Sequence record: LR597645
DNA: 43,664 bases
Origin: Escherichia phage Fraca
Direction: 5' to 3' (one strand)
Shown here: one piece after another, positions 5,849 through 36,063 of the stretch
Layout of the letters: every line of letters starts with the position of its first letter
Numbering within the stretch: position 1 is the first letter of the stretch
Notes under the pieces: generated by a model
What the model saw: only the letters and a program-made list of their open reading frames with translations
What the model was told of the DNA's origin: nothing
The model's database searches: none
Translations under genes and position numbers: made by a program

Positions 5849-6097
5849 ATGAAACTGATCGCACTCAAACCGATTTATTTCGGCGGTACCGTCGTTACTG
5901 AAGGGCTTCCGCTGGAAACTCTGGAACAGCACGGGCGCGAGCTCATCAAGAAAGGTTATGCGAAGCTCGAAGAATCAGAAAATCCTGCAAAGCAGGAACA
6001 GCAGCAGGAACAGCAGCAGGAACAGCAGCAGGAACAGCAGCAGGAACAGCAGCAGGAACAGCCGGAATTAAAAGCGGAAAAGAAGGCGAAAAAATAA
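5849..6097 (+). CDS. Small head-region protein with EQQQ tandem-repeat tract
   Basis: 82 aa ORF between capsid and connector genes; contains (EQQQ)x5 encoded by a 12-bp tandem repeat. Confidence 0.55.
   Translation: MKLIALKPIYFGGTVVTEGLPLETLEQHGRELIKKGYAKLEESENPAKQEQQQEQQQEQQQEQQQEQQQEQPELKAEKKAKK
5993..6060 (+). repeat. Tandem repeat, 12-bp unit GAACAGCAGCAG x about 5.5
   Basis: Direct reading of 5992-6066. Confidence 0.9.
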
Positions 6098-6423
6098 TGG
6101 TCGATCTTGATGTGGTGAAACAGCACTGCCGCATTGATACCGATTTTTCCGGAGACGATGCCCTGCTGACTTTATACACCGGTGCGGCGGCGCGTTACGT
6201 CCAGACATGGACAAGGCGAACGCTCTATGAAAACCAGAGCTCCCCTGGCTACGCAGATGACCCGGACCCGATTCTACTGAATGATGATGTTAAAGCGGCC
6301 ATGTTATTGCTGATAGGTCACTGGTATGCCAACAGAGAATCAGTTTCCGTCGGTCAGACTGTTGCAGAGGTCCCGTTTGCAGTTGAAGCCTTGCTGCAGC
6401 CATACCGAATTTACGGGGTATAG
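6097..6423 (+). CDS. Head-tail connector / DNA packaging protein (gp6-like)
   Basis: 108 aa; start overlaps upstream stop; position and sequence typical of phage gp6-like head-tail connector. Confidence 0.7.
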   Translation: MVDLDVVKQHCRIDTDFSGDDALLTLYTGAAARYVQTWTRRTLYENQSSPGYADDPDPILLNDDVKAAMLLLIGHWYANRESVSVGQTVAEVPFAVEALLQPYRIYGV

Positions 6424-6432
6424 GAGGACTTT

Positions 6433-6771
6433 ATGCAGGCCGGAAGACTGAGAGACAGGGTGGTGGTTCAGAACCTCACAACATCCAGAGATCCTTCTGG
6501 CCAGCCTGTTGAAGCATGGCATGACGGCGCAGAAACCTGGGCAGAAGTAAAGGGCATTAGTGGGCGCGAGTTGGTAGCCGCTGGTGCTGAAACCGCAGTC
6601 GCCACTATCAGGGTATGGACACGATTTCGTAGCGATATAACTGCTGCGTCCAGACTCAGGGTTATGACTGGCGCGTTCAAGGGGGCCATTTTGAATATCA
6701 TTGGTCCGCCAATCCCTGACTCTCGCGGTATTCAGCTCGAAATTCTTTGCAAACAGGGTACCGAAAAATGA
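6433..6771 (+). CDS. Head closure / head-tail adaptor protein
   Basis: 112 aa; AGGAGG RBS at 6422-6427; position after connector. Confidence 0.7.
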   Translation: MQAGRLRDRVVVQNLTTSRDPSGQPVEAWHDGAETWAEVKGISGRELVAAGAETAVATIRVWTRFRSDITAASRLRVMTGAFKGAILNIIGPPIPDSRGIQLEILCKQGTEK

Positions 6772-7217
6772 TTGAGACGAGCCTTGATTTTTCCGGGCTG
6801 AATGACATCGCAAAGGATCTGGAAGCGCTTAGCCGCGCTGAAAACAACAAGGTTCTGCGTGATGCCACGCGAGCCGGTGCCGAAGTGCTTAAGGAAGAAG
6901 TGATCGCCCGAGCTCCTGTGCGTACCGGGAAACTGAAAAAAAACGTGGTGGTGGTGACCCAAAAAAGCCGACGCCGCGGGGAAATTTCTTCCGGTGTCCA
7001 CATTCGTGGTGTTAACCCGCGCACCGGGAACAGCGATAACACGATGAAGGCGAATAACCCGAGAAACGCCTTTTACTGGCGATTCGTCGAAATGGGTACC
7101 GTTAACATGCCGCCGCACCCTTTCATTCGTCCCGCGTTCGATGTACGCCAGGAGCAGGCGACGGAGGTCGCGATCAGGCGCATGAACCAGGCCATTGACG
7201 AGGCATTAAGCAAATGA
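6768..7217 (+). CDS. HK97 gp10-like tail component
   Basis: ATG at 6768 overlaps upstream stop (ATGA); the track ORF 6747-7217 is trimmed to this start. Confidence 0.65.
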   Translation: MIETSLDFSGLNDIAKDLEALSRAENNKVLRDATRAGAEVLKEEVIARAPVRTGKLKKNVVVVTQKSRRRGEISSGVHIRGVNPRTGNSDNTMKANNPRNAFYWRFVEMGTVNMPPHPFIRPAFDVRQEQATEVAIRRMNQAIDEALSK

Positions 7218-7561
7218 CGGAAGACGATCTCTATCCTCTGCTTGAGTCGCTGGCCGGAGGGCAGGTCTATCCCTATGTTGCCCCACTCGGCAGTGACGGG
7301 AAGCCTTCAGTCTCGCCGCCCTGGGTAATTTTCTCAATTATTACCGACGTGGCCGCAGACGTTCTTTGCGGTCAGGCTGAATCTGCCGTTTCTGTGCAGG
7401 TTGATGTCTATTCCAGCACCATCGCTGAAGCGCGCACGATCAGGAATATGGCGCTTGATGCTCTGCAGGTGCTGAAGCCGGAAAGCATTGTGAAAACGCC
7501 GGGCTATGAGCCTGATCTGCGCTATCACCGGGCGACACTTGAATTTCAGGTAACCGTTTAA
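7214..7561 (+). CDS. Tail terminator / tail completion protein (DUF3168-like)
   Basis: 115 aa; ATGA overlap with upstream gene; directly precedes major tail protein. Confidence 0.65.
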   Translation: MTEDDLYPLLESLAGGQVYPYVAPLGSDGKPSVSPPWVIFSIITDVAADVLCGQAESAVSVQVDVYSSTIAEARTIRNMALDALQVLKPESIVKTPGYEPDLRYHRATLEFQVTV

Positions 7562-8862: not shown

Positions 8863-11800
8863 ATGGCAACGCTGCGCGAGCTAATCATCAAAATTTCGGC
8901 GAACTCTTCTTCTTTCCAGTCAGAGATCGCCAGAGCGTCCCGCATGGGAACCGATTACTACCGCACTATGGAACAGGGCGGGAAAAAAGCTGCAGCGGCC
9001 ACGCGTGAAACTCAGCGGTCTTTGGCTGACCTGAATTCTCAGCTTGCAACCGTGCGATCCTCTGCTGCCGGGCTTGCCGGTGCGTGGGCTGGTGCATTTG
9101 CCACGCATCAGCTGATTCAGTTTGCCGACACGTGGAACCAGTTGAATGGGCGTCTTCGCCTTGCGTCCTCTTCCAGTGAGGATTACGTGCAATCCCAGCG
9201 CGTGCTGATGGAGATTAGCCAGCGCACCGGAACATCCCTCGAGGCAAACAGCAACCTGTACAGCAGAATTGCGCAGTCCCTGCGAGATGCCGGTTACGCT
9301 TCTGCTGACGTCGCAAAAGTTACGGAAACCGTAGCAACCTCACTGAAGCTGTCTGGCGCCAGTACCGAAGAGGCAAGTTCTGTTATCACCCAGCTTAGCC
9401 AGGCACTTGGCTCAGGCGTTTTGCGAGGTGAAGAATTTAACTCCATCATGGAGAACGGTGGCCGCCTGGCGAAACTGCTGGCTGATGGGCTGGGTACCAC
9501 TGTTGGTGGCCTGCGAAATATGGCCAACAACGGCGATCTGACGACCAACAAGATCGTCCCGCTGCTGACCAACGTTGAGATCCTCCGTAAAGAATTCGAC
9601 ACCCTTCCTGCATCCATCAGCGGATCTGCACAGAAAGTGCAAAACGCCTTTCTCGCATGGGTTGGCGGGGCGAATGATGCTGTCGGCGCATCATCCACGC
9701 TTTCTGGCGTGCTGGATGGTCTGGCGAATAACATCGATGATGTGGCAAATACAGCCGGTCTTCTGGTTGGTGTTGGCCTCGCTCGTTATTTTGGCAACAT
9801 GGTCGGCAGCGTTGCTCAGTCAACCCGGGCAGTCCTCGCTAATACGGCCGCCGAGGTCGCGCTGGCGCAGGCTCAGGTCCGTGGAGCTCAGGTTAGCGTT
9901 GCTGCTGGTCGCCAGGCTGTTTACCGCGCTCAACAGGCGCGTGCAGCGGCGACGAGTATTGAGGCTCAGATTGTAGCTGAGCGTAATCTTGCTGCTGCTC
10001 AGGCATCACTGAATACGGCGCTTGCTGGCAGGACTTCGGCCGTTAATAACCTCACCAATACAGCCTCGGTGATGTCCCGCCTGGGTAGTGGCGTTCTTGG
10101 TATTCTCGGTGGCTGGCCTGGAGTGATTATCGGTGCCGGCGCTGCGATGTATGGCCTGTATCAGCATACCCAGCAGGTGCACCGTGAGGCGGTAGGTTTT
10201 GCCAACAACCTCGACGAGATCAACACCAAGCTCCAGCAGATGTCGGTGCTTGGCCTGCGTTCGACCGCGGCTGATGCCCGTACATCTTTACAGGCGCAAA
10301 AACAGGACCTGGCCGACCTCGACTCTCAGATCGCGAAGGTGAAAGACAGCCTTAAGGCGGTTGACCAAATCCAGCAGGACTATAACCGCCATCCGACGCT
10401 GACCCTGATTAACACTTTCATGGACCAGGCCGACATCACGGCCAAAAATATCGAGCTGACCGATAAGCTGAACCAGCTGGAGTACCAGCGCGAACAGGCA
10501 GCCTCAAAAGTCGAGCAAACGCAGAAGCTGGTAAACCAGGCCAGCGATCTGGCCACGCAAAAGGCTATCGAACAGGCTGGCGCCGTCTCTATCCTGAAAG
10601 GTGCGTATGACCTGCTTAACCGCTCAATGTCAGCGACCGCTGGCGCCAAGCCGCCGCAATATGCCGGGCCCGTCGTTTCACTGGCAAACGCAACGCCTCA
10701 ACAGCAAACTGCACTGGAGCGCTCGCGCCGAGATAACGAGCTGGCCAGCCTAAGCGGTTTAGAGAAACTCCATCAGCAGCACGTGTATGAAGCAGAAGAC
10801 CTGAAGCTGACGGGAGCACTTTACACCCAGTACATCTACAACAAGGATCAGGCAGCCAAAAAAGATGCAGCGGCTGCGGAGGCAAAAAAAACCTCTACCG
10901 CCGCCTCGAAAGCACAGAGTAAAGCCGAGCGCGAAGCGGCCAGCACCGCCGAACAGTATTCCCGGAAAATGGCCGATCTGAGTGTGGCTATCGACGTGCA
11001 ACGCGTCAGGGCGACGGAAGGCGAAAAAGCCTCCGAGCTTTACGCGGCATCGCACCAGGCAGGCACTAAATGGACCGACGAGCAGCGCAGGGCGATCCAG
11101 GCATCATCAGCAGAGCTGGCAAAATGGACGCAAAAAGCCGACGAGAACGTGCGCAAGCAGCGCGAACAAGCTGATGCCCTGAAAGATTTAACTGAAGCGG
11201 CCCGAAAGTTCAGGGATGAGGCGACGCTGACAACCGAAACCGCAGGCATGAGCGATCGCCAGCGTAGCCGTTTCGACGAGACGCAACAGATCGACCGTGT
11301 TTTTGCTAAAACGGACGGCGGTACCGAGGCCATCGCGCAGCGCGCCGCAGCCCTCGATGCTCTGGATAAGAAATACAAGGCTATTGCAGCAGCTGAAGCG
11401 GATTGGATGTCCGGAGTATCACGCGGCTATGCAAACTGGTTTGATGAAATCAGCAATGTTTCCGGCACGGTTTCTGACGGGGTGAAAACCACACTCGACA
11501 GCGCGTTTAGTAATGTCACCTCAATGCTCGAAGGCAATAAGGTCAGCTGGAAATCCTGGGGTATCTCTGTTTTACAGATTATCGAAAAAGTGGCTCTGCA
11601 GATGGCGGTGGTAAGCGCGATGGGTGGGGCCTCTTCCGGTTCTGGCATCTTTGGCTCTCTCATCGGCAGTGTAGGCAGCTTCTTCGGGGGCGGGGCGGGA
11701 GCATCAGCCAGCACCGGTACGGCGGTTTCCAGTTACGGATCGAACTTCCAGTTTAACGCCAAAGGCGGCGTTTATGACTCTCCATCTCTGAGCGCTTTCA

Positions 11801-12144
11801 GTAATGGGATCGTCAGAAACCCCACCATGTTCGCTTTCGCGAAAGGCGGGGCCGGAATCATGGGCGAGGCCGGGCCGGAGGCAATCATGCCGCTGACTCG
11901 CGCACCGGATGGTTCACTCGGTGTTCGTGCGGTCGGCGCTAGTGGTGGTCAGTCTGTATCTTCGGCGCCACAGGTTTATATCACCATCGATGGCAACGGA
12001 AATACCTCCACGCAGACTTCACCCGGTCTTGAGCAATTTGGTGCTGATGTCGGTAAATATGTTGATCAGCGATATAAGCAGAACATCATGCGAGATATTC
12101 GCCCTGGCGGTGACATCTGGAACGCAATGAAAGGAACCCGATAA
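8863..12144 (+). CDS. Tail tape measure protein
   Basis: 1093 aa, Ala/Gln-rich coiled-coil protein downstream of the G/T chaperone. Confidence 0.9.
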   Translation: MATLRELIIKISANSSSFQSEIARASRMGTDYYRTMEQGGKKAAAATRETQRSLADLNSQLATVRSSAAGLAGAWAGAFATHQLIQFADTWNQLNGRLRLASSSSEDYVQSQRVLMEISQRTGTSLEANSNLYSRIAQSLRDAGYASADVAKVTETVATSLKLSGASTEEASSVITQLSQALGSGVLRGEEFNSIMENGGRLAKLLADGLGTTVGGLRNMANNGDLTTNKIVPLLTNVEILRKEFDTLPASISGSAQKVQNAFLAWVGGANDAVGASSTLSGVLDGLANNIDDVANTAGLLVGVGLARYFGNMVGSVAQSTRAVLANTAAEVALAQAQVRGAQVSVAAGRQAVYRAQQARAAATSIEAQIVAERNLAAAQASLNTALAGRTSAVNNLTNTASVMSRLGSGVLGILGGWPGVIIGAGAAMYGLYQHTQQVHREAVGFANNLDEINTKLQQMSVLGLRSTAADARTSLQAQKQDLADLDSQIAKVKDSLKAVDQIQQDYNRHPTLTLINTFMDQADITAKNIELTDKLNQLEYQREQAASKVEQTQKLVNQASDLATQKAIEQAGAVSILKGAYDLLNRSMSATAGAKPPQYAGPVVSLANATPQQQTALERSRRDNELASLSGLEKLHQQHVYEAEDLKLTGALYTQYIYNKDQAAKKDAAAAEAKKTSTAASKAQSKAEREAASTAEQYSRKMADLSVAIDVQRVRATEGEKASELYAASHQAGTKWTDEQRRAIQASSAELAKWTQKADENVRKQREQADALKDLTEAARKFRDEATLTTETAGMSDRQRSRFDETQQIDRVFAKTDGGTEAIAQRAAALDALDKKYKAIAAAEADWMSGVSRGYANWFDEISNVSGTVSDGVKTTLDSAFSNVTSMLEGNKVSWKSWGISVLQIIEKVALQMAVVSAMGGASSGSGIFGSLIGSVGSFFGGGAGASASTGTAVSSYGSNFQFNAKGGVYDSPSLSAFSNGIVRNPTMFAFAKGGAGIMGEAGPEAIMPLTRAPDGSLGVRAVGASGGQSVSSAPQVYITIDGNGNTSTQTSPGLEQFGADVGKYVDQRYKQNIMRDIRPGGDIWNAMKGTR

Positions 12145-13241: not shown

Positions 13242-13952
13242 ATGCGTCAGAAAACCATTGATGCTATTATGGCGCATGCAGCCGCTGAACATCCACGTGA
13301 GTGCTGTGGTGTGGTGGCGCAGAAAAGCCGCGTTGAACGTTATTTTCCTTGCCGGAATCTTGCCGCGGCGCCGGAGGACAATTTTGTCCTTTGCCCCGAA
13401 GATTATGCATCTGCTGAGGACTGGGGTACGGTGATCGCCATCGTTCACAGCCACCCTGACGCCACTACGCAGCCGAGCGAACTGGATAAAGCGCAATGCG
13501 ACGCAACGCTTTTACCCTGGCATATCGTGAGCTGGCCGGAGGGGGATTTACGCACCATCCAGCCGCGCGGAGAGCTGCCGTTGCTGGAGCGTCCTTTTGT
13601 GCTTGGTCACTTTGACTGCTGGGGGCTGGTAATGAGCTATTTCCGGCAAACTCATGGTATCGAACTCCACGATTACCGGGTTGATTATCCCTGGTGGGAA
13701 AACGACTACCCGGACAACTTCTATCAGGATTGCTGGTACGAATGCGGATTCCGTGAATTCGACGGGCCGCCGAAACCTGGCGATATGGTGATCATGCAGG
13801 TGCAGGCTGATAAGTGGAACCACGCGGGTATATTGCTGGAGGGCAATATGCTGCTGCACCACCTGTACGGTCACCTGAGTCAGCGAGTACCATATGGCGG
13901 TTACTGGCAGGAACGAACGATGAAGATTCTCCGTTACAAATCTCTGTGCTAA
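13242..13952 (+). CDS. K: Tail assembly protein K (JAB/MPN plus NlpC/P60-like)
   Basis: 236 aa; HSHP metal-binding motif and Cys-containing C-terminal half, as in lambda gpK. Confidence 0.8.
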   Translation: MRQKTIDAIMAHAAAEHPRECCGVVAQKSRVERYFPCRNLAAAPEDNFVLCPEDYASAEDWGTVIAIVHSHPDATTQPSELDKAQCDATLLPWHIVSWPEGDLRTIQPRGELPLLERPFVLGHFDCWGLVMSYFRQTHGIELHDYRVDYPWWENDYPDNFYQDCWYECGFREFDGPPKPGDMVIMQVQADKWNHAGILLEGNMLLHHLYGHLSQRVPYGGYWQERTMKILRYKSLC

Positions 13953-13984
13953 CCTTTTGCAAAACGAAAAAAGGGGTTAGGGAT

Positions 13985-14332
13985 ATGAGGAAATTTCTTT
14001 CGATATTAGCGTGTAGCCTGATTATTGTTGGTTGCACACCTTCTGAAAAGGATTTTATTGACATGGGGGAGTCCTTGGTCAAAGACACCCTTAAAGATCC
14101 GGACAGTGCCAAGTTTGAATCATTTTTCCGTGATTTTGGTGAAAATTCTGGATATGTTTGCGGTTATGTGAATGCTAAAAATTCATACGGCGCATACACG
14201 GGTAAAAAACCATATTATGTGCGGATTGAGGTCAAAGATGGAAAGGTCAATAATCATGGACCAATCATCATTATTAATGACCAAGACCAGAAGAAAATTG
14301 ATTCCTATGAGTCAATCTGTCAAAGGGACTGA
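13985..14332 (+). CDS. Lipoprotein (moron in the tail module)
   Basis: ATG at 13985 with GGGG RBS; signal peptide MRKFLSILACSLIIVGC with lipobox; AT-rich relative to neighbours. Confidence 0.65.
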   Translation: MRKFLSILACSLIIVGCTPSEKDFIDMGESLVKDTLKDPDSAKFESFFRDFGENSGYVCGYVNAKNSYGAYTGKKPYYVRIEVKDGKVNNHGPIIIINDQDQKKIDSYESICQRD

Positions 14333-14338
14333 TATGCC

Positions 14339-14674
14339 ATGAAAAAGATTATCCTCCCAATTTTTATCTTCCTGCTGATGGGATGTTCTGTTTCTTCACT
14401 AGAAGAACAAAAACCTATCCTATCAGAGCATTCAACAAAAACTGTTGATGAGGTTAATCGTTGCCTTTCTCCTAAATGGGTGGAGCTACGATCTTCAAGC
14501 TCAAGCATACCCACTGAATCAGGATACAAAATCACAGCATCAGACGATATATTCGGTGCTCTTTCGGTGGTGAATATCGATAAATCAGCGACAGGCGGAA
14601 GCGATATAAAGGTTTATGCCGTCGCGAAAGGATGGAACGACCACTGGGCTACGGCCGCCAGATCATGTCTTTGA
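14339..14674 (+). CDS. Lipoprotein (second moron in the tail module)
   Basis: 111 aa; signal peptide MKKIILPIFIFLLMGC with lipobox; AT-rich. Confidence 0.65.
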   Translation: MKKIILPIFIFLLMGCSVSSLEEQKPILSEHSTKTVDEVNRCLSPKWVELRSSSSSIPTESGYKITASDDIFGALSVVNIDKSATGGSDIKVYAVAKGWNDHWATAARSCL

Positions 14675-14692
14675 AAACCCTAAAATAATCTA

Positions 14693-14717
14693 AGCCACCT
14701 TCGGGTGGCTTTTTTTA
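14693..14717 (+). terminator. Intrinsic terminator after the lipoprotein morons
   Basis: AGCCACCTTCGGGTGGCT hairpin followed by a T7 tract. Confidence 0.75.
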
Positions 14718-14723
14718 TGGAGA

Positions 14724-15329
14724 ATGAAAATGTCAGAGGTTATGACCAGAATTGAGCTCGGCGGTGTTTTGGGTAAAACCTACGGGAAGGTTCACCATCG
14801 TCTAATAAGAACAACCGCAGAAGCGATAAACTCACTTACAAAAACAATAGACGGGCTGGAGAAATTTTTGATAACCAGCAAAGCAAGGGGCCTGACCTAC
14901 GCCGTCTTTAAAGATAAAAAAAATATCGGAAAAGATGATTTTGGTTTTCCGGTAACAGGTGAAGTTATTCGAATTGTCCCTGTAGTGATCGGAAGTAAAA
15001 AAGCTGGAGTTTTACAGACAATTCTTGGAGCTGTTCTTGTCGTTGCGGGGATTGCAGTTGGAATGCTTTCTGGTGGAACACTATCTGCTGTTGGTTACGG
15101 AGCCGCGAAGTTTGGTGCAGCTATGATCGCTGGTGGAGTTGTTCAGATGCTATCGCCTCAACCCGGGGGCCTGGCCAGCAAACAAAGCGCAGATAACCGT
15201 GCATCGTATGCGTTCGGCGGGGTGACAAATACCGCCGCACAGGGTTACCCGGTTCCGCTCCTTTACGGCCGCCGGCGAATCGGCGGGGCAATTATTTCCG
15301 CCGGAATTTATGTCGAAGATCAGCAGTAG
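14724..15329 (+). CDS. I: Tail assembly protein I (lambda gpI-like)
   Basis: 201 aa with a Gly/Ala-rich hydrophobic C-terminal half, as in gpI; position between K and J. Confidence 0.8.
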   Translation: MKMSEVMTRIELGGVLGKTYGKVHHRLIRTTAEAINSLTKTIDGLEKFLITSKARGLTYAVFKDKKNIGKDDFGFPVTGEVIRIVPVVIGSKKAGVLQTILGAVLVVAGIAVGMLSGGTLSAVGYGAAKFGAAMIAGGVVQMLSPQPGGLASKQSADNRASYAFGGVTNTAAQGYPVPLLYGRRRIGGAIISAGIYVEDQQ

Positions 15330-15347
15330 AGAACAAACCTTTTTACA

Positions 15348-15371
15348 AGCCACCCCCGGGTGGCTTTTTTT
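15348..15371 (+). terminator. Intrinsic terminator upstream of J, near-identical to the 14693 element
   Basis: AGCCACCCCCGGGTGGCT hairpin followed by a T7 tract, then ATG at 15383. Confidence 0.7.
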
Positions 15372-15382
15372 ATGGGCGCGAT

Positions 15383-18300
15383 ATGGCTAAAACAATTACC
15401 GGACGAAAAGGGGGGAGCTCCAGTTCCCGAACTCCTACCGAACAGCCTGATGATCTGCAATCTGTAGCGAAGGCAAAGATCCTCGTTGCGCTTGGGGAAG
15501 GGGAGTTTGCTGGACAGCTCACCGGGAAGGATATCTACCTGGACGGAACGGCGCTGGAGAACGCCGACGGCTCCCAAAACTTCAGCGGCGTTACGTGGGA
15601 ATTCCGCGCGGGTACACAGGCCCAGAAGTACATTCAGGGCATTCCCGGTACCGAAAACGAAATCAGCGTGGGCACCGAGGTAACGAGCGCTACAGCGTGG
15701 ACACGAACCTTCACCAATACACAGCTTTCAGCGGTTCGTTTACGCCTGAAATGGCCTTCGCTTTTCAAGCAGGAGGACGATGGCGATCTGGTTGGTTACT
15801 CGGTTAATTATGCGATTGACTTGCAGACGGACGGCGGGACATGGCAGACAGTCCTCAATACCAGTGTGACCGGGAAAACGACCTCAGGTTATGAGCGTAG
15901 CCACCGTATTGATTTACCTCAGGCGGGCAGCACCTGGACAATCAGACTACGCAAAATTACCGCTGACGCCAACAGCGCGAAAATCGGCGACACGATGACG
16001 CTACAGAGCTTCACTGAGGTGATTGATGCGAAATTGCGATATCCGAACACCGCGCTGCTGTACATTGAATTCGACTCCAGCCAGTTTAATGGTTCTATAC
16101 CTCAGATCTCCTGTGAGCCTCGTGGCCGCGTTATTCGGGTTCCTGATACTTACGACCCGGAAACTCGATCTTACAGCGGGACATGGACCGGGGCGTTTAA
16201 GTGGGCATGGACGGATAACCCTGCGTGGATTTTTTACGATCTGGTTGTTTCTGACCGGTTCGGCCTCGGTCACCGTTTGACTGCTGCTAACATCGATAAA
16301 TGGACGCTTTATCAGGTCGCCCAGTATTGCGATCAGATGGTACCGGACGGTAAGGGTGGCGATGGAACAGAACCACGCTATACCTGCAACGTGTACATTC
16401 AGGACCGGAACGACGCTTACACAGTCCTGCGTGATTTTGCTGCTATTTTCCGTGGCATGACGTACTGGGGTGGCGATCAGATCGTTGCTCTGGCCGATAT
16501 GCCCCGTGATGTGGATTACAGCTACACGCGCGCTAATGTTGTTGGCGGTCGCTTCACCTATTCAAGCAGCACCACGAAAACCCGCTACACTACAGCGCTG
16601 GTTTCATGGTCCGATCCCGGTAACGCCTATGCTGACGCGATGGAACCCGTATTTGAGCAGGCTCTGGTGGCGCGGTACGGCTTCAATCAGCTGGAAATGA
16701 CAGCCATCGGCTGTACCAGGCAGTCAGAAGCGAACCGAAAGGGGCGCTGGGGTATTCTCACCAACAACAAGGATCGCGTTGTTTCGTTTGATGTCGGGCT
16801 GGACGGAAACATACCGCAGCCTGGCTATATCATCGCTGTGGCAGACGAGCTGCTTTCCGGAAAGGTTATGGGCGGACGCATCAGCGCCGTTAATGGTCGC
16901 GTTATCAAACTTGACCGTGTAGCTGATGCGGCAGCAGGTGATCGCCTTATCCTCAACCTTCCCTCCGGAGCGTCACAGAGCAGGACCATTCAGGCGGTTA
17001 ACGGGGAATCGGTCACAGTCACCACCGCGTACAGTGAGACGCCTCAGGTCGAAGCTGTCTGGGTGGTTGAGTCAAACGAACTCTACGCGCAGCAGTATCG
17101 TGTTGTGAGTGTCGCTGATAACGATGATGGCACTTTCACCATTACCGGTGCATGGCACGATCCGGATAAATATGCCCGAATCGATACCGGAGCCATCATT
17201 GACCAGCGGCCGGTGAGCGTGATCCCGCCGGGCAACCAGTCGCCGCCTGCGAACATCGTGATCAGCTCGTTTTCTGTGGTGCAGCAAAATATCAGCGTCG
17301 AAACGATGCGGGTGAGCTGGGACCAGGCGCAGAACGCTATCGCCTATGAAGCTCAATGGCGCCGCAACGACGGGAACTGGGTTAACGTGCCGCGCAGCTC
17401 CACCACGTCATTCGACGTTCCGGGGATTTATGCCGGGCGCTACCTGGTGCGCGTGCGCGCAATCAACGCCGCTGAAATTTCTTCCGGATGGGGGTATTCA
17501 GAAGAGAAAACGCTGACGGGTAAAGTGGGCAATCCACCGAAGCCGGTGGGTTTCATCGCGTCTGAAAACGTGGTTTTCGGTATCGAGCTGAACTGGGGAT
17601 TCCCGGCGAATACCGACGACACGCTGAAGACGGAAATTCAGTACAGCCTTACCGGTACCGAAGACGATGCGATGCTGCTGGCCGATGTGCCTTACCCGCA
17701 GCGCAAATATCAGCAGATGGGACTTAAGGCTGGGCAGATTTTCTGGTACCGCGCGCAGCTGGTGGACCGTAGCGGCAACGAATCAGGTTATACCGAATGG
17801 GTGCGAGGACAGGCCAGCATCGATGTTTCCGACATCACAGACGTGATCCTGGAGGAAATTAAGGACTCCGATACGTTCAAAGACCTGATCGAGAACGCGG
17901 TGGACAGCAACGAAAAAATTGCTGGCATGGCTGACGAAATCAAAAACCATGCTGACGAACTCGAGCAGCAGGCGAAAGACATCCAGGAGAACGCTGACGG
18001 GCTGGCTCAGGCCGAAGTGAAGATAGACGAGATCTCTGTGTCGATGGACGGCATGACGGGAGGTGTGAAGAACTCGGCAATTGCGATAATCCAGGCCAAT
18101 CTCGCTCAGGTGGCCACGCGTAAAACGCTGTCGGCATCGGTAGCCGGTAACAGCGCGCAGCTGGACCGCATTGATGAGGTGATCGTCACTGACAGGGAGG
18201 CAACGGCACGCGCATTGCTGAGCCTGCAGACGAACGTCAACGGCAATACGGCATCCATCAACAGTCTGAGCCAGACGGTTTCGAATTACCAGCAGACCAC

Positions 18301-18829
18301 GGCGACGCAGATAAACGCCATCACTGCGACCATAAACGGAAATACGGCGGCGATAACAACGAACGCCCAGGCAATTGCGAACGTAAACGGCCAACTCAGC
18401 GCGATGTACAACATCAAAGTTGCGGTAACGAGTAATGGCCAGTATTACGCCGCAGGCATGGGGATCGGGGTGGAGAATACGCCATCAGGGATGCAGTCGC
18501 AGGTAATCTTCCTGGCCGACCGTTTTGCCGTCACTACGGCAGCAGGAAACAGCGTGGCGTTGCCATTTGTGATCCAGAATGGTCAGACGTTCATCAGGGC
18601 CAGCTTCATTCAGGACGGTACCATTGAGAACGCCAAAATCGGTAACTATATCCAGTCGAATAACTATGTGGCTGGCTCGGCAGGCTGGAAACTTGATAAA
18701 GGCGGCACCTGGGAAAACTACGGCAGCGACGGTCAGGGAGCAAGAAAATCCACCAATGTCACTGACAGTATCAGGGATTCAAATGGCGTGCTCCGCGTGC
18801 AAATCGGCAAACTTACAGGGGTGTTTTGA
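15383..18829 (+). CDS. J: Host specificity / tip attachment protein J (central tail fibre)
   Basis: 1148 aa ORF in the lambda J position; fibronectin-like middle region and C-terminal receptor-binding region. Confidence 0.9.
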   Translation: MAKTITGRKGGSSSSRTPTEQPDDLQSVAKAKILVALGEGEFAGQLTGKDIYLDGTALENADGSQNFSGVTWEFRAGTQAQKYIQGIPGTENEISVGTEVTSATAWTRTFTNTQLSAVRLRLKWPSLFKQEDDGDLVGYSVNYAIDLQTDGGTWQTVLNTSVTGKTTSGYERSHRIDLPQAGSTWTIRLRKITADANSAKIGDTMTLQSFTEVIDAKLRYPNTALLYIEFDSSQFNGSIPQISCEPRGRVIRVPDTYDPETRSYSGTWTGAFKWAWTDNPAWIFYDLVVSDRFGLGHRLTAANIDKWTLYQVAQYCDQMVPDGKGGDGTEPRYTCNVYIQDRNDAYTVLRDFAAIFRGMTYWGGDQIVALADMPRDVDYSYTRANVVGGRFTYSSSTTKTRYTTALVSWSDPGNAYADAMEPVFEQALVARYGFNQLEMTAIGCTRQSEANRKGRWGILTNNKDRVVSFDVGLDGNIPQPGYIIAVADELLSGKVMGGRISAVNGRVIKLDRVADAAAGDRLILNLPSGASQSRTIQAVNGESVTVTTAYSETPQVEAVWVVESNELYAQQYRVVSVADNDDGTFTITGAWHDPDKYARIDTGAIIDQRPVSVIPPGNQSPPANIVISSFSVVQQNISVETMRVSWDQAQNAIAYEAQWRRNDGNWVNVPRSSTTSFDVPGIYAGRYLVRVRAINAAEISSGWGYSEEKTLTGKVGNPPKPVGFIASENVVFGIELNWGFPANTDDTLKTEIQYSLTGTEDDAMLLADVPYPQRKYQQMGLKAGQIFWYRAQLVDRSGNESGYTEWVRGQASIDVSDITDVILEEIKDSDTFKDLIENAVDSNEKIAGMADEIKNHADELEQQAKDIQENADGLAQAEVKIDEISVSMDGMTGGVKNSAIAIIQANLAQVATRKTLSASVAGNSAQLDRIDEVIVTDREATARALLSLQTNVNGNTASINSLSQTVSNYQQTTATQINAITATINGNTAAITTNAQAIANVNGQLSAMYNIKVAVTSNGQYYAAGMGIGVENTPSGMQSQVIFLADRFAVTTAAGNSVALPFVIQNGQTFIRASFIQDGTIENAKIGNYIQSNNYVAGSAGWKLDKGGTWENYGSDGQGARKSTNVTDSIRDSNGVLRVQIGKLTGVF

Positions 18830-19131
18830 TGTCATGGGGTATACAAACATGGGATGCGTCGGGTAAACCCAACAACTACGGTATCAAGCCAGTTTCAGTT
18901 GTTGGGCGTATACAGCTGGCTGCCGGACAAAACTCCGGCAACTGGTCTTTCGCGGTGCCCTCAGGAATGAAGGTCGGCTTTGTGCTCACACTTGATGAAG
19001 GAGGAAGCAGCGTAGGGAGGCGCATTGTCGCGTCAGGGAACACAATAACTGTAACTGCTGCCTCTTCTGTAGGCCTGGGAAATTACCCGGCCTCTAAGTG
19101 TGAGGTGATCGTTTTCATGGAGAAAGCATAG
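18829..19131 (+). CDS. Hypothetical protein downstream of J
   Basis: ATG at 18829 overlaps J stop; contains a WDASGK motif shared with the next gene. Confidence 0.55.
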   Translation: MSWGIQTWDASGKPNNYGIKPVSVVGRIQLAAGQNSGNWSFAVPSGMKVGFVLTLDEGGSSVGRRIVASGNTITVTAASSVGLGNYPASKCEVIVFMEKA

Positions 19132-19805
19132 TGTCTGACTTTGGCGCAATGATATTAATGGAGAACGGCAATCCCTTTGTTACACCACAATCAACGCCTT
19201 TCTGCCTCTACGGAAAATACTCCTTCAATTCCTCAGCTAATGGCAGCTCTCAGCAGGTGGCGCAATATCTTTCGGTTCCTGACGATTATCCGGTAATGGT
19301 CTTCATAAAAACGACTAATACTGCGCAGCCGACTCCGGCCATGTCATATCGGATAGGAGGAAATGTCTATATTAGTGGCGTAAATCCCTATAACCAGGGC
19401 TTTACGCTGACAGCATATGTATTTGCAATTTTTCCGCAAACACTTCCCGCGTGGGGATTTGCTATCTGGGATGCCTCCGGGAAGCTTGTTCTGACGAACG
19501 AATCAAGGGTGCTTTCTGATCTTCAAACAGTGGGCACGCCAGGTGCAAGCGGCGGGATTAATATTGACCAGACGCTGAGCGGGTCATGGGCTGTTGCGCC
19601 TGCACAGCTTGGGCAGACCATCGTTGTGAATAACTCCACCCAGCCTCCGACCATCTACACCATCAATGCTTATTCGGCTTGCAGGTTTGACGGGACTAAT
19701 ACGAGGATAAATGCAGGGGGAACCTCCACCGGAACAGGTTCTCCGGGAGGTGGAACGAATACTGGCATTTCCTTGACCGCGATAAATACAGCGGCCTATG
19801 ACTGA
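19131..19805 (+). CDS. Hypothetical tail-associated protein, paralogous to the preceding gene
   Basis: 224 aa; GTG start overlapping upstream stop with GGAGAAAG RBS; WDASGK motif; Gly/Thr-rich C-terminus. Confidence 0.55.
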   Translation: MSDFGAMILMENGNPFVTPQSTPFCLYGKYSFNSSANGSSQQVAQYLSVPDDYPVMVFIKTTNTAQPTPAMSYRIGGNVYISGVNPYNQGFTLTAYVFAIFPQTLPAWGFAIWDASGKLVLTNESRVLSDLQTVGTPGASGGINIDQTLSGSWAVAPAQLGQTIVVNNSTQPPTIYTINAYSACRFDGTNTRINAGGTSTGTGSPGGGTNTGISLTAINTAAYD

Positions 19806-19916: not shown

Positions 19917-20150
19917 ATGATTAAGCTACTTATCTGCATGGCTGGCGCTGTCATGCTTTCAGGCTGCGCTGGAGTAATTGAGAAACAGGAACCAATTTGC
20001 AGCGGAACGGCCATCGTTGGCGGTCAGGAAAATACCGTCCAGATTTACGGTGTTCGTAAACAAAATAACCAGACGCAGTACCGAGCCGGTGATCCCTTTA
20101 ACTGGCGCTGGGTAGGTGCAAATACATTCACTGGCACTACCTGTAAATAA
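19917..20150 (+). CDS. Small lipoprotein
   Basis: 77 aa; signal peptide MIKLLICMAGAVMLSGC with lipobox; preceded by an AT-rich palindromic region. Confidence 0.6.
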   Translation: MIKLLICMAGAVMLSGCAGVIEKQEPICSGTAIVGGQENTVQIYGVRKQNNQTQYRAGDPFNWRWVGANTFTGTTCK

Positions 20151-21646: not shown

Positions 21647-21913
21647 TTAAAGCCCAACCTGGCGAACTGTCGGGAACTCAGAAACAAGCCACATATCTGC
21701 TTCTTCAAACATTTCCTCCAGCATGCGGTTCAGTTTTTCCCGATCGCTTTTGCTGGCATCGCTATTTAAGGCGTTTGCCTGCATCGGCTTCACCTTCACT
21801 TCGGCATCAGGGAAAATCTGGTGCACCCGCTTCGTCAGCTCGGCCAGTATGATCTCTCTGGCCCCTTCGAGCCCCTCAACATTACGCTTGTCATAAATCA
21901 GTTCTACGAACAT
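21647..21913 (-). CDS. dinI: DinI-like protein
   Basis: About 88 aa from ATG at 21913; C-terminal EEMFEEADMWLVSEF resembles the DinI signature ETWESADDWFVSE. Confidence 0.7.
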   Translation of the reverse strand: MFVELIYDKRNVEGLEGAREIILAELTKRVHQIFPDAEVKVKPMQANALNSDASKSDREKLNRMLEEMFEEADMWLVSEFPTVRQVGL

Positions 21914-21989
21914 ACGTGCTCCGCTAACTACTGTTTTAATATACAGTATTTTTGCTTTGGCAGTTTTGTCTGTCAAGGCATCAACCATT

Positions 21990-24219: not shown

Positions 24220-24963
24220 TTAACCCTCCCACCCAATCGCCTGGAACAGGCCCATTTTAGGGTGATACCAGCGGGTGCCGCGCGGTTCAGCTTCTGACAT
24301 CATCTGGCGAAACGCGGCCATAAACGGCTCCAGTTCGACGATAGCCCTACGTGACAAAAGCCCGTCTGGAGTCATAAATTCGTGCGTGTCTGTCGGGATG
24401 CGGTAGGCATTGACCAAATTCCGGCACTTGGCGTCACTCATTCCGCTTTTGGCTACCACCTGGCGGTAACCGACATATCCGGCGCGCATGGTCCCGCGTT
24501 TGATGTTCTCCACAGCTTCAGTGACCGTTTCGATCTGCTCTTCAACATGATTCAGGCGCTTCTGCTGGCGAACGGCATCGGCGGCCATTGCGGCGATCAT
24601 CTCGATTTCCGTCAGCGGCGCGCGAGTGCGGAAATAGCTGTTAACCAGCTCACGCTGAACCTGCCAGGCCAGATCGTCCGTGAGTGACTTCGCCACCATC
24701 AGATATCCAGATTCGAAAAGCACAATTCCAGAGGGCGCAAACTTAGAAAACACACCTTCTGGAAGGTCCCGGCGTATAACGTCGGAACCTAATTCAACGT
24801 AATCGACCCCCTCGACAAAGTAGTTCCTGTTTTCACGAAAATTACGTCCTGCTGTTCCATCTGGTCGTTGGTGAGCTTCGTCAATCATTGCGAATGTCAC
24901 AACGCGCTGACCGCGATATTCGACTGCCGGCAGCTGTTTGTTATTGATCGTTACTGTGTTCAT
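24220..24963 (-). CDS. ORF6N-domain-like protein (antirepressor-related family)
   Basis: 247 aa; N-terminal region resembles ORF6N-type phage proteins; family assignment from memory only. Confidence 0.5.
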   Translation of the reverse strand: MNTVTINNKQLPAVEYRGQRVVTFAMIDEAHQRPDGTAGRNFRENRNYFVEGVDYVELGSDVIRRDLPEGVFSKFAPSGIVLFESGYLMVAKSLTDDLAWQVQRELVNSYFRTRAPLTEIEMIAAMAADAVRQQKRLNHVEEQIETVTEAVENIKRGTMRAGYVGYRQVVAKSGMSDAKCRNLVNAYRIPTDTHEFMTPDGLLSRRAIVELEPFMAAFRQMMSEAEPRGTRWYHPKMGLFQAIGWEG

Positions 24964-25008: not shown

Positions 25009-25836
25009 TCACTTAACCTGGATAAATGGAGTATTGGCGCCGCTGGTCATGTACTGGGGCAGAGTGCCGTTCCATTTGTTGATGGCCTCCAGTTGAAGCA
25101 CTTCAGGGTTTTCGCGCATGGCCTGCCCACGAATCTGGATAGACTTCGCTTCCGCTTCCGCCAGCTTCAACTTTGCGTCTGCCTGGCCATCTGCTTCAGC
25201 GCGCAGCATGTTTGCTTCGGCTTCACGCTGTTTCACTTCTTGCTCGCGCTGCAGGGTCTTCTGGTTGGCGGTGACTTTGGCGTTGATGCTGTCGATAACA
25301 GTCGGCGGGTACTCCGGACGGCCGACGTAAGAAAGGCTGATAACCTGGATTCCTACCGGACCCATGTCGGACTGAATCTCTTTCAGAGCATTTTCAAGCA
25401 GTTCAGCTTTCCCGCCGTCAATGAACTTATCGGTGCTCATGCGGCTTGCGAGACGATTAAGGGCATCGGCAATCTTTTGGCGCAAATCGGTGTCGGTGAT
25501 GTCGTCCACGCCTTTCCGATAGGTCTGAAACACCGTCGTCACTTTGGTCGGATCAACTTTATAGGCGACGCCGATGTGATAGCCGATGGTTGTGCCGTCA
25601 CTCATCTGGAAGTTGAAAGCGTCGTCGTAGGTTTTCATCTGTTTGAAGGTCGGGAAGATGTAAACCTCTGTGTTCCAGCCAGTCCAATAGCGGCCAACGC
25701 CTACCACTTCGCCAACGCCTTTATCGTCACCCAGCTTGTTGACCTTAATCCCAACGTTGCCAGGCTCAACACGATCACAACCAACGAGACCGACGGCAGA
25801 AAGCGCGATAATTGAAGCCATAATTGCTTTTTTCAT
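25009..25836 (-). CDS. SPFH (band 7 / prohibitin-like) domain lipoprotein
   Basis: 275 aa; signal peptide with lipobox LVGC; SPFH-like core and C-terminal Ala/Glu-rich coiled coil; start overlaps upstream stop (ATGA). Confidence 0.7.
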   Translation of the reverse strand: MKKAIMASIIALSAVGLVGCDRVEPGNVGIKVNKLGDDKGVGEVVGVGRYWTGWNTEVYIFPTFKQMKTYDDAFNFQMSDGTTIGYHIGVAYKVDPTKVTTVFQTYRKGVDDITDTDLRQKIADALNRLASRMSTDKFIDGGKAELLENALKEIQSDMGPVGIQVISLSYVGRPEYPPTVIDSINAKVTANQKTLQREQEVKQREAEANMLRAEADGQADAKLKLAEAEAKSIQIRGQAMRENPEVLQLEAINKWNGTLPQYMTSGANTPFIQVK

Positions 25837-26027
25837 TTTTTTTCCTTAGTTACGGTTACAACAAGACCCTTACAGATGACGTAGATGCACGGCGGGGTCA
25901 GAATCGCCAGGGCAAAACCGGATATAACTGCTGTTGTGTCCTTCATCGAAATGAGGATCGGAACGAACAGCCCATAAACGCTGGCGACAATCACCACCGA
26001 TAGAACAACGCGTAAGTAAGCAATCAT
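25833..26027 (-). CDS. Small two-TM membrane protein coupled to the SPFH gene
   Basis: About 64 aa from ATG at 26027; two hydrophobic segments; ATGA overlaps on both sides. Confidence 0.55.
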   Translation of the reverse strand: MIAYLRVVLSVVIVASVYGLFVPILISMKDTTAVISGFALAILTPPCIYVICKGLVVTVTKEKK

Positions 26028-26434
26028 CAGTTGATCCCTTCTGGTTTGCTGGCCTGGAGCTCCGCTTGCTCTTTCACGTAGCGGTCGTGCATGGAGTCCC
26101 ATTTCGCCAGCCACTTACGTGCTTCGCGCTTGCGTTCCAGAATTCGCCGAATGCGCCGCATACAGCGGTTGTGTGCAAAGAGATATTGCTGAGTGTGCTG
26201 GCCCATTCGATTGACGAGCACACCGTTGCTGAACACAGGCTCGTCTGGTTCGTTGGTATTCAAACCGGCCCGGCGAAATGTTTTGGTTACCATGTAGTGA
26301 GCCAGGTTGCTGATCGCCGCACTTCTGCTGAGGAAACGGCGCGAGTAACCGTGCCTCGATACGACATAAACTGGCTGCAACTCCGTAGTAAACGCTCTGT
26401 CGATTGAGGTGGTAGTAATGCGTTTATCGTTCAT
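26027..26434 (-). CDS. Hypothetical basic protein
   Basis: 135 aa; ATGA overlap with upstream and downstream genes. Confidence 0.5.
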   Translation of the reverse strand: MNDKRITTTSIDRAFTTELQPVYVVSRHGYSRRFLSRSAAISNLAHYMVTKTFRRAGLNTNEPDEPVFSNGVLVNRMGQHTQQYLFAHNRCMRRIRRILERKREARKWLAKWDSMHDRYVKEQAELQASKPEGIN

Positions 26435-35521: not shown

Positions 35522-36063
35522 ATCCGTCTCCGTTAATTGCAGCAATAAAAGCCTGGTGGAAGCCGTTTTTAGTATTGATTGTTGTGGTCGCCGCGTTTAT
35601 CGCTGGCAATGTCTGGAGTAACCGGGCATGGGAAAAAAAGTGGGCAGACCGTGATAGTGCCGAGTCCTCGCAACAAGTCAACGCGCAGACCGCCGCCAGA
35701 ATGATAGAGCAAGGGCGAATTATTGCCCGTGATGAGGCCGTTAAAGATGCTCAAGAGAAAGCAGCTGCCGCGCGTGATGTTTCTGCCCGTTTGGCTGGCA
35801 CTGTTAGTCAGCTGCAGCAACAGGCAAGAAAACTCGCCACCCGCCTGGACGCCGCAAAGCACACCGCAGATCTTGCCGCTGCCGTCAGAGGCAAAACAGC
35901 CGGAGCCAACGCCACAATGCTCGCCGACATGCTCGGAGGTCTTGCAGCAGAAGCTAAATATTATGCTGAACGATCTGACGAAAGCTATCGAGCAGGAATG
36001 ACCTGTCAGCGTATTTATGACTCGGTGAGAGAGTCAAACAACCAATCTGGAGCCTCGCAATAG
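35518..36063 (+). CDS. Rz-like i-spanin
   Basis: 181 aa; N-terminal TM segment then Ala/Gln-rich coiled coil; GTG start overlapping the endolysin stop. Confidence 0.7.
35777..36001 (+). CDS. Rz1-like o-spanin lipoprotein embedded in the +1 frame of Rz
   Basis: ATG at 35777 encodes [14 protein letters not shown] (lipobox) followed by a Pro-rich sequence, wholly inside the Rz gene. Confidence 0.65.

Follow-up and report, generated by a model that had tools for sequence, protein, structure and literature searches.

Two predicted lipoprotein genes lie between the tail genes K and I

The genome of Escherichia phage Fraca (sequence record LR597645), analysed here as one strand of 43,664 nucleotides (nt) and referred to as the window, carries two small open reading frames, ORF-A and ORF-B, between the tail genes K and I. 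An earlier reading of this DNA, made from the letters alone (the sequence-only reading), had described them as AT-rich lipoprotein genes inserted between K and I as morons with a terminator of their own, and had proposed that they mask the phage's receptor in a manner matched to the J protein or the tail fibre. Both genes are present, each with a signal peptide and a lipobox Cys:

13985..14332, + strand: ORF-A, predicted lipoprotein precursor of 115 amino acids (aa), MRKFLSILACSLIIVG followed by C-TPSE, lipobox IVG/C17, phrog_2320
14339..14674, + strand: ORF-B, predicted 111-aa lipoprotein precursor, MKKIILPIFIFLLMG followed by C-SVSS, lipobox LMG/C16, phrog_914

ORF-B starts 6 nt past the stop codon of ORF-A. 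The low GC content also agreed with the sequence-only reading, at 0.385 for ORF-A and 0.432 for ORF-B compared to 0.546 for K and 0.549 for J.

The N-termini of both proteins (MRK...IVGC17 in ORF-A and MKK...LMGC16 in ORF-B) have a short basic N-region that leads through a hydrophobic core to a lipobox, and they satisfy the PROSITE PS51257 rule (lipobox [LVI][ASTVI..][GAS]C, Cys at 15-35). Note that the rule is loose: 14 ORF starts in the window (~9 distinct ORFs) passed it, compared to a mean of 3.1 in 30 shuffles, and the weight is therefore carried by family-wide conservation of the lipobox. In alignments of the A and B families, the lipobox Cys was invariant or at least 90% conserved within each family. 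A further pair of Cys residues is conserved in the A family (C59/C112) and invariant in the B family (C42/C110), fitting a disulfide in an exported domain and an oxidising periplasmic location. The A-family alignment also contains the invariant motif KDP.S...CG..N.KN..G.Y.G. At +2, A has Thr and B has Ser. As neither is Asp, Lol-dependent transport of both proteins to the outer membrane is predicted in Enterobacterales.

Pairwise ratios of non-synonymous to synonymous substitution (dN/dS) against homologues were 0.04-0.16 over both ORFs (0.06-0.16 for ORF-A), demonstrating purifying selection. At 90% identity, the homologues formed 52 clusters for ORF-A and 49 for ORF-B. AlphaFold2 (AF2) produced models with a predicted local distance difference test (pLDDT) score of 87 for ORF-A and 84 for ORF-B, in which the mature domain of each protein (~95 aa) is folded; the ORF-A model has a helix-4 strands-helix fold. 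ORF-A and ORF-B are real genes. That they might be spurious or decaying ORFs in an AT-rich spacer, as suggested only by their small size and lack of annotation, is a negligible prospect considering the low dN/dS, the invariant Cys residues, the confident AF2 models, and the existence of thousands of homologue clusters for A and ~80 for B.

Both proteins belong to catalogued families. ORF-A matched phrog_2320 with an E-value (E) of 2.1e-34 over residues 1-113 and ORF-B matched phrog_914 with an E of 2.8e-25 over residues 1-111; the two families are listed in PHROGs as having unknown function. A Pfam scan of 39 members of the B family returned the lipid-attachment motif only, and sequence searches of the PDB with single sequences and profiles of A and B found no match beyond the signal peptide. 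Judged by their names, the closest carriers of the A/B cassette belong to Enterobacter and Citrobacter, along with a few draft assemblies of E. coli; among complete E. coli genomes, megablast with the cassette found no match.

The K-I slot is a hotspot for envelope-targeted cargo

The gene order of the window is that of an HK97/HK022-type lambdoid phage, with the following features around the slot:

8863-12144: tape measure gene, followed by M, L and K
13242..13952, + strand: K, tail tip assembly, left border of the slot; Prok-JAB 4e-21 and NlpC/P60 1e-21 (Pfam), phrog_30 3.5e-132
13953..13984, + strand: K-A spacer of 32 nt with a Shine-Dalgarno (SD)-like sequence (AAAGGGG/AGGGA), too short for a promoter; read from the sequence
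14692..14718, + strand: intrinsic terminator with an 8-bp GC-rich stem, UUCG loop and U7, abutting the SD of I
14724..15329, + strand: I, tail assembly, right border of the slot; phrog_32 2e-71
15347..15375, + strand: second terminator plus SD copy between I and J, 93% identical to the first; found by repeat search and folding

In phage lambda, K and I are directly adjacent. K of the window is 96% identical in aa sequence to K of HK97, and the K and I proteins of HK97, HK022 and mEp234 are more than 77-96% identical to those of the window, with different or remnant cargo between them. The cargo of HK022 is gp20, annotated as 'moron gene product', and HK97 and mEp234 have a remnant or relative of gp20 followed by a terminator. 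Thus, the insertion of A and B between K and I is real, as the sequence-only reading had it. The start of I may be at 14730, according to the annotation of the relative LMessi, and the Pfam model Lambda_tail_I matched I at 0.002, under the gathering cut-off.

LMessi has the same A+B pair between K and I, with 96.5% and 98.2% aa identity, annotated as hypothetical proteins. In phiKO2, a linear-plasmid prophage of Klebsiella oxytoca, gp19 is a B homologue (49% aa identity) between K and I that is followed by a terminator, and is annotated as 'putative moron gene product'. The same arrangement is found for p54 of Serratia phage OS31 (44% aa identity). Unlike the pair in the window, both of these homologues occur alone, without an ORF-A partner. 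HK022 gp20 (74 aa) occupies the same slot but is unrelated cargo, and its relative in locus L094 has a single hydrophobic, transmembrane-like segment and no lipobox.

We recovered 80 IMG/VR loci with a member of the B family. In 78/78 loci in which K and I were both visible, B followed K and immediately preceded I; it also lay directly upstream of I in one further locus with only I in range. A and B occurred together in 27 of the loci and B alone in ~35. In the remainder, the space between K and B was taken up by genes for secreted proteins (132-168 aa), a lipoprotein of the YecR family, one other lipoprotein, small membrane proteins and a transmembrane protein resembling HK022 gp20, or by KilA-N/antirepressor genes. 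The K-to-I interval ranged from ~0.4 kb (B alone) to ~7 kb across loci. The slot is a cargo hotspot, and its cargo consists almost entirely of envelope-targeted proteins.

The YecR-family lipoprotein (PF13992, 2e-20) was found upstream of B in loci L107-L109 (5582-5908) and L098-L102. YecR is a cellular lipoprotein that is present in a flagellar-motor structure (PDB 7bgl).

A and B are combined in the window, LMessi, loci L015-17 and the 27 IMG/VR loci. A occurs alone in L018-20, and B alone in L021/22, phiKO2 and OS31. Since each is found alone, A and B are independent modules. We considered that B had decayed in L015 and L017 and rejected this, as the gene is intact (8378-8713 in L015) and merely uncalled in the source annotation; counts of 'A alone' made from called genes would consequently be inflated.

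The kind of element described here, the slot as a moron site (annotated as such since HK022 gp20 and phiKO2 gp19) and the presence of both families in PHROGs were already known. Morons are characterised by extra DNA, deviant base composition, an own terminator and an own promoter through which they can be expressed from the repressed prophage, as summarised in PMC3594210. For A and B we found the extra DNA, the composition and a terminator; no conserved own promoter was detected in a sigma-70 scan. Hence the description as morons stands on three of these features and fails in the strict sense on the fourth.

Terminator and transcription

The hairpin at 14692-14718 is strong (-15.4 kcal/mol, z -3.5 relative to shuffles), in agreement with the terminator proposed by the sequence-only reading. 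However, every phage examined has an equivalent hairpin before I, whatever the cargo, so that it belongs to the slot no less than to the cassette itself. A 29-nt direct repeat with 93% identity (14692-14720 and 15347-15375), comprising hairpin, U7 and SD, brackets gene I and could serve as a recombination substrate for the exchange of cargo.

The promoter scan covered the sigma-70 consensus only. It gave no match in the 32-nt K-A spacer, where only a ribosome-binding site was found. Sigma-70-like 9/12 matches at 13807-13834 (within K) and 14226-14254 (within A) were rejected, as neither is conserved in LMessi or L016. With no conserved promoter of their own, A and B are most simply viewed as being transcribed with the late tail operon. 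An antiterminated polymerase would read through the hairpin at 14692-14718, and any weak lysogenic transcript would end there.

A and B are not coupled to the receptor-binding end of J

The region downstream of I contains the genes for receptor binding and a cor gene:

15383-18829: J
18826-19131: phrog_557 gene, downstream of J
19131-19805: phrog_425 gene, downstream of the phrog_557 gene
19917..20150, + strand: cor, phrog_1119 6.8e-34, after J and the phrog_557 and phrog_425 genes

A side fibre gene with an S74 chaperone domain follows 3' of cor, and then the integrase gene. Cor of the window shares 80% aa identity with HK022 Cor (gp27, annotated as 'phage exclusion'). With a genuine cor in its canonical place after J, the known receptor-blocking function is already covered.

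Profile comparison of A and B with Cor and Llp, which the sequence-only reading had called for, gave signal-peptide matches for B and none for A. ORF-B matched the Cor profile phrog_1119 with an E of 0.15 over residues 1-29 only, the signal peptide, and BLASTP of ORF-B against Cor of the window likewise aligned the signal peptide only; ORF-A did not match phrog_1119. The B-family profile matched T5 Llp (8a60_B) with an E of 0.46 over residues 1-19 only. The A profile had no Llp match in the PDB, and no Llp family was present among the PHROG matches of A and B.

The J C-terminus shares 74-85% identity with its counterparts in phi80, HK022 and mEp390. Phages phi80 and HK022 are users of FhuA. 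FhuA use predominates among the lambdoid mEp phages (PMC11893012). To relate the cassette to J, we used 18 loci with a complete J in which A and B are at least 95% identical to those of the window. Despite the near-identical cassettes, the last 150 aa of J fell into 11 clusters at 85% identity. The identity of B did not correlate with that of the J C-terminus (rho -0.02, n=36, p 0.92), whereas the identity of Cor did so strongly (rho 0.95, n=11, p 5e-6); none of these figures is corrected for phylogeny. LMessi provides a further contrast: it has retained the cassette but lacks the phrog_557 gene, the phrog_425 gene and cor, and its fibre tip differs.

In LMessi (locus L013), genes for proteins of 100 and 213 aa and, on the reverse strand, for a 120-aa lipoprotein (MKLLFAAALFLVAGC...) take the place of the missing genes. 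The replacement region spans 5981-6343 (+ in the locus) and 6308-7248 (-), and is also found in L021/22 and L056-72. The counterpart of the 213-aa protein in the E. coli prophages L021/L022 matches DUF8377. This replacement is a candidate for an alternative receptor-blocking module travelling with a different J tip.

B co-varied with M, L, K, I and residues 1-600 of J (rho 0.7-0.9), not with the J C-terminus, and the co-variation decayed toward the tape-measure gene and the J tip. We do not take the co-variation with K, I and the N-terminal part of J as a sign of functional matching, as the signal declines with distance on both sides in the way expected from plain linkage.

The BASEL study described porin-targeting exclusion factors that are encoded beside the receptor-binding protein, at the J locus (PMC11990801). 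This placement fits cor, not A or B. By all sequence comparisons made here, A and B are unrelated to Cor and Llp and uncoupled from the receptor-binding end of J. The contrast within one genome is new: cor follows the receptor-binding end of J, while the K-I lipoproteins follow the tail-tip assembly block.

B is tied to I and A recurs at two tail-cluster slots

The B family is small, with 79 clusters at 50% identity among 1.84 billion proteins. Using a single distant member (P0192) as query in Pseudomonas, we found distant B genes (25-37% identity) directly upstream of I in 16/21 genome loci (L114-L134). In L126 and L129-131 the distant B gene lies in the chromosome, with an Hsp20-like gene and a gene for another lipoprotein as neighbours; it is chromosomal in L132 too, but beside other genes. 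That B adjoins I so strictly in two bacterial orders (Enterobacterales and that of Pseudomonas) is a new observation. The GC content of B follows that of the host, yet lies 5-17 points below K in every host background, Pseudomonas included. That B follows the host composition speaks for its having resided in the tail module for long, and against a recent import.

The A superfamily is much larger, comprising at least 2,989 clusters at E <= 1e-3, and is found in phages of Proteobacteria and Actinobacteria. It has no Pfam model. Its members are almost always lipoproteins, are occasionally fused to SPOR domains and recur in tail clusters. In Pseudomonas phage AUS531phi (L103, 2501-3154) a SPOR-fused A-domain lies between K (NlpC/P60) and I. 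An A-domain is encoded directly before the tape-measure gene in Citrobacter prophages, in very common Salmonella prophages and in ES18 (gp20). In Gordonia phage Zirinka, the A-domain protein gp16 (L105, 2474-2791) is encoded on the opposite strand, between the tail chaperone and tape-measure genes. The P2-like phage SEN5 has a member at its ogr-int end. The recurrence of the A-domain at the same two tail-cluster slots across phyla is likewise new.

Possible functions of A and B

A and B are accessory genes of the cargo or 'moron' type, independent of each other and housed in the hypervariable slot between K and I within a tail-tip module like that of lambda. Our preferred, still tentative, interpretation gives them an envelope-level exclusion role directed at a target other than the receptor of J. 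Judging from the genomic context and the precedents of HK97 gp15, Cor and Lpp021/Lpp010, exclusion is the most likely role, and a general function in phage exclusion or envelope modification appears plausible. By the established rules of lipoprotein maturation, both proteins would be exported through Sec, lipidated by Lgt, cleaved by LspA and acylated by Lnt. In the role we favour, they would alter the envelope from the periplasmic face of the outer membrane and thereby stop adsorption or entry of other phages or of released progeny. Their target would differ from the FhuA-type receptor of J, which cor handles. We regard B as a long-standing member of the tail-tip block formed by M, L, K, I and the N-terminal part of J, and A as a mobile lipoprotein domain that phages have repeatedly inserted beside the tape-measure gene or K/I. 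In a more specific version, which we consider unlikely, both proteins would block a receptor-independent periplasmic step in siphophage entry (tail-tip opening, tape-measure insertion or crossing of the cell wall), with B acting as an ancient tail-tip-linked lipoprotein and A as a lipoprotein domain spanning bacterial phyla.

Several results weigh against an exclusion role. Searches of Pfam and NCBIfam with ORF-A and ORF-B gave nothing above noise, and in PADLOC-DB neither A, B nor Cor matched any family at E <= 1; since Cor was also without a match, this library does not cover superinfection-exclusion (Sie) lipoproteins. Neither family was mentioned in a literature search on the PHROG identifiers and the KDPDSAKF motif. 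The fold matches are generic, being weak and NTF2/VirB8-like for ORF-A (E >= 0.02, template-modelling score <= 0.41) and to helix-grip folds such as Flpp3, BamC-N and START for ORF-B. The helix-grip fold often binds hydrophobic ligands rather than proteins. No own promoter turned up in the sigma-70 scan, so nothing supports expression in the lysogen, the state in which exclusion would be of benefit. Physical linkage alone may explain why B co-varies with K, I and the N-terminal part of J. Finally, the chromosomal relatives of B beside an Hsp20-like gene hint at a cellular envelope or stress role.

The alternative that we take most seriously, although it seems rather unlikely to us, is that A and B are lysogenic-conversion factors aiding the host apart from phages, by Bor-like serum resistance, envelope stress tolerance, lipid/peptidoglycan homeostasis or adhesion. 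Bor and Lom are precedents for such genes, and the SEN5 homologue of A is located at a prophage end, a typical site of conversion genes. Some A-domains are fused to the peptidoglycan-binding SPOR domain, the helix-grip fold of B resembles Francisella Flpp3 and BamC-N, and some distant Pseudomonas relatives of B are chromosomal and adjoin an Hsp20-like gene. Note that the similarity of B to the Francisella lipoprotein Flpp3/DUF3568 (9nlt_B, 6pny) amounts to 7% identity with a Foldseek E of 0.058, which is not significant, and that there is no Pfam DUF3568 match. However, the sigma-70 scan found no promoter for lysogenic expression, B lies strictly beside I in the tail modules of two bacterial orders, and A recurs beside the tape-measure gene or K/I in unrelated phages, a pattern not expected for generic host-fitness genes. 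A Cor/Llp-like masking of the phage's own receptor (that of J or the side fibre) by A and/or B, blocking superinfection and protecting progeny as the sequence-only reading had proposed, is improbable. As outer-membrane-type lipoproteins of the tail region A and B resemble Cor and Llp, late co-transcription with tail genes would suit the protection of progeny, and there are lipoproteins from tail clusters that exclude phages dependent on OmpA or LamB (PMC11893012). This proposal is nevertheless disfavoured by the absence of homology to Cor and Llp past the signal peptide, by the phage's own cor together with a J C-terminus of phi80/HK022 type, by near-identical cassettes occurring with 11 types of J C-terminus (rho -0.02 versus 0.95 for Cor), and by LMessi, which has the cassette despite differences in cor, in the accessory genes and at the fibre tip. 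In addition, known maskers are encoded beside the receptor-binding protein (PMC11990801), and the A-domain is also present in Gordonia phages, whose hosts lack such outer-membrane proteins. We find it still harder to credit that A and B act in the periplasm for the benefit of the phage's lytic cycle, for instance by neutralising or guiding wall hydrolases of the tail (NlpC/P60 of K, lysin motifs of the tape measure) or by modifying outer membrane or peptidoglycan during lysis and release. The genes adjoin K (NlpC/P60) or the tape-measure gene, late co-transcription is likely, and SPOR fusions and the co-variation of B with the tail-tip block would agree with such a role; but neither functional tails nor lysis depend on A or B in lambda, HK97 and HK022, which lack them, no fold similarity to known hydrolase inhibitors was found, and the phage encodes its own spanin-like lipoprotein elsewhere (35747-36001).

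Relation to known exclusion systems

As with A and B, Cor (of phi80, N15, HK022 and mEp167) is a small outer-membrane-type lipoprotein from the lambdoid tail region; it acts from the periplasmic side. In contrast to A and B, Cor has ~77 aa, is encoded downstream of J and co-varies with the J C-terminus, with no sequence or fold relationship to either protein. One report (10.64898/2026.03.26.714494) describes T5 Llp as a small disulfide-containing lipoprotein of the inner leaflet of the outer membrane, similar in type to A and B, but Llp is shorter and is encoded beside the receptor-binding protein.

HK97 gp15, encoded in the T-H slot, was the first moron for which a function in superinfection exclusion was demonstrated (PMC3594210), and this slot before the tape-measure gene is also used by ORF-A homologues. 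Both HK97 gp15 and TP-J34 Ltp are tail-operon cargo that exclude at DNA entry without receptor masking. Neither is homologous to A or B; gp15 is a YebO-like inner-membrane protein and Ltp a Gram-positive lipoprotein. Lpp021 and Lpp010 of mEpimmI coliphages are lipoproteins from the structural cluster that exclude OmpA- or LamB-using phages in plating assays (PMC11893012). They come from a different phage group and track receptor usage, whereas A and B showed no tracking of the J C-terminus; no mEp phage was among the matches listed in tblastn searches of a phage collection with A and B.

Tail-cluster cargo is a proven source of superinfection-exclusion proteins (Cor, HK97 gp15, Lpp021/Lpp010), and is mostly uncharacterised. 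Should the A superfamily or the I-adjacent B family cause a receptor-independent entry block, a widespread exclusion mechanism would be added, constituting a new class of Gram-negative periplasmic entry blockers with a logic analogous to that of HK97 gp15 and Ltp. Cross-exclusion would then be expected among phages sharing a tail type rather than a receptor, with relevance to prophage competition and to host range in phage therapy. If A and B are instead host-fitness lipoproteins, they would be ordinary lysogenic-conversion genes.

Other genes in the window

The spanin-like gene at 35747-36001 (+) is an 84-aa ORF with the lipobox LLVSC that passes the lipoprotein rule and has no Pfam match; it is likely an o-spanin (Rz1-type). 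A DinI-like protein (PF06183, 2e-23) is encoded just past the fibre gene at 21647-21988 (-), and an ORF6N-domain antirepressor-like protein near the integrase gene at 24220-24963 (-). The early-left region contains, at 25009-25836 (-), the gene of a 275-aa SPFH/Band_7 lipoprotein with the lipobox LVGC, in which Asp at +2 predicts retention in the inner membrane. A small hydrophobic ORF (25833-26114, -) adjoins this gene, and the pair may be further envelope cargo.

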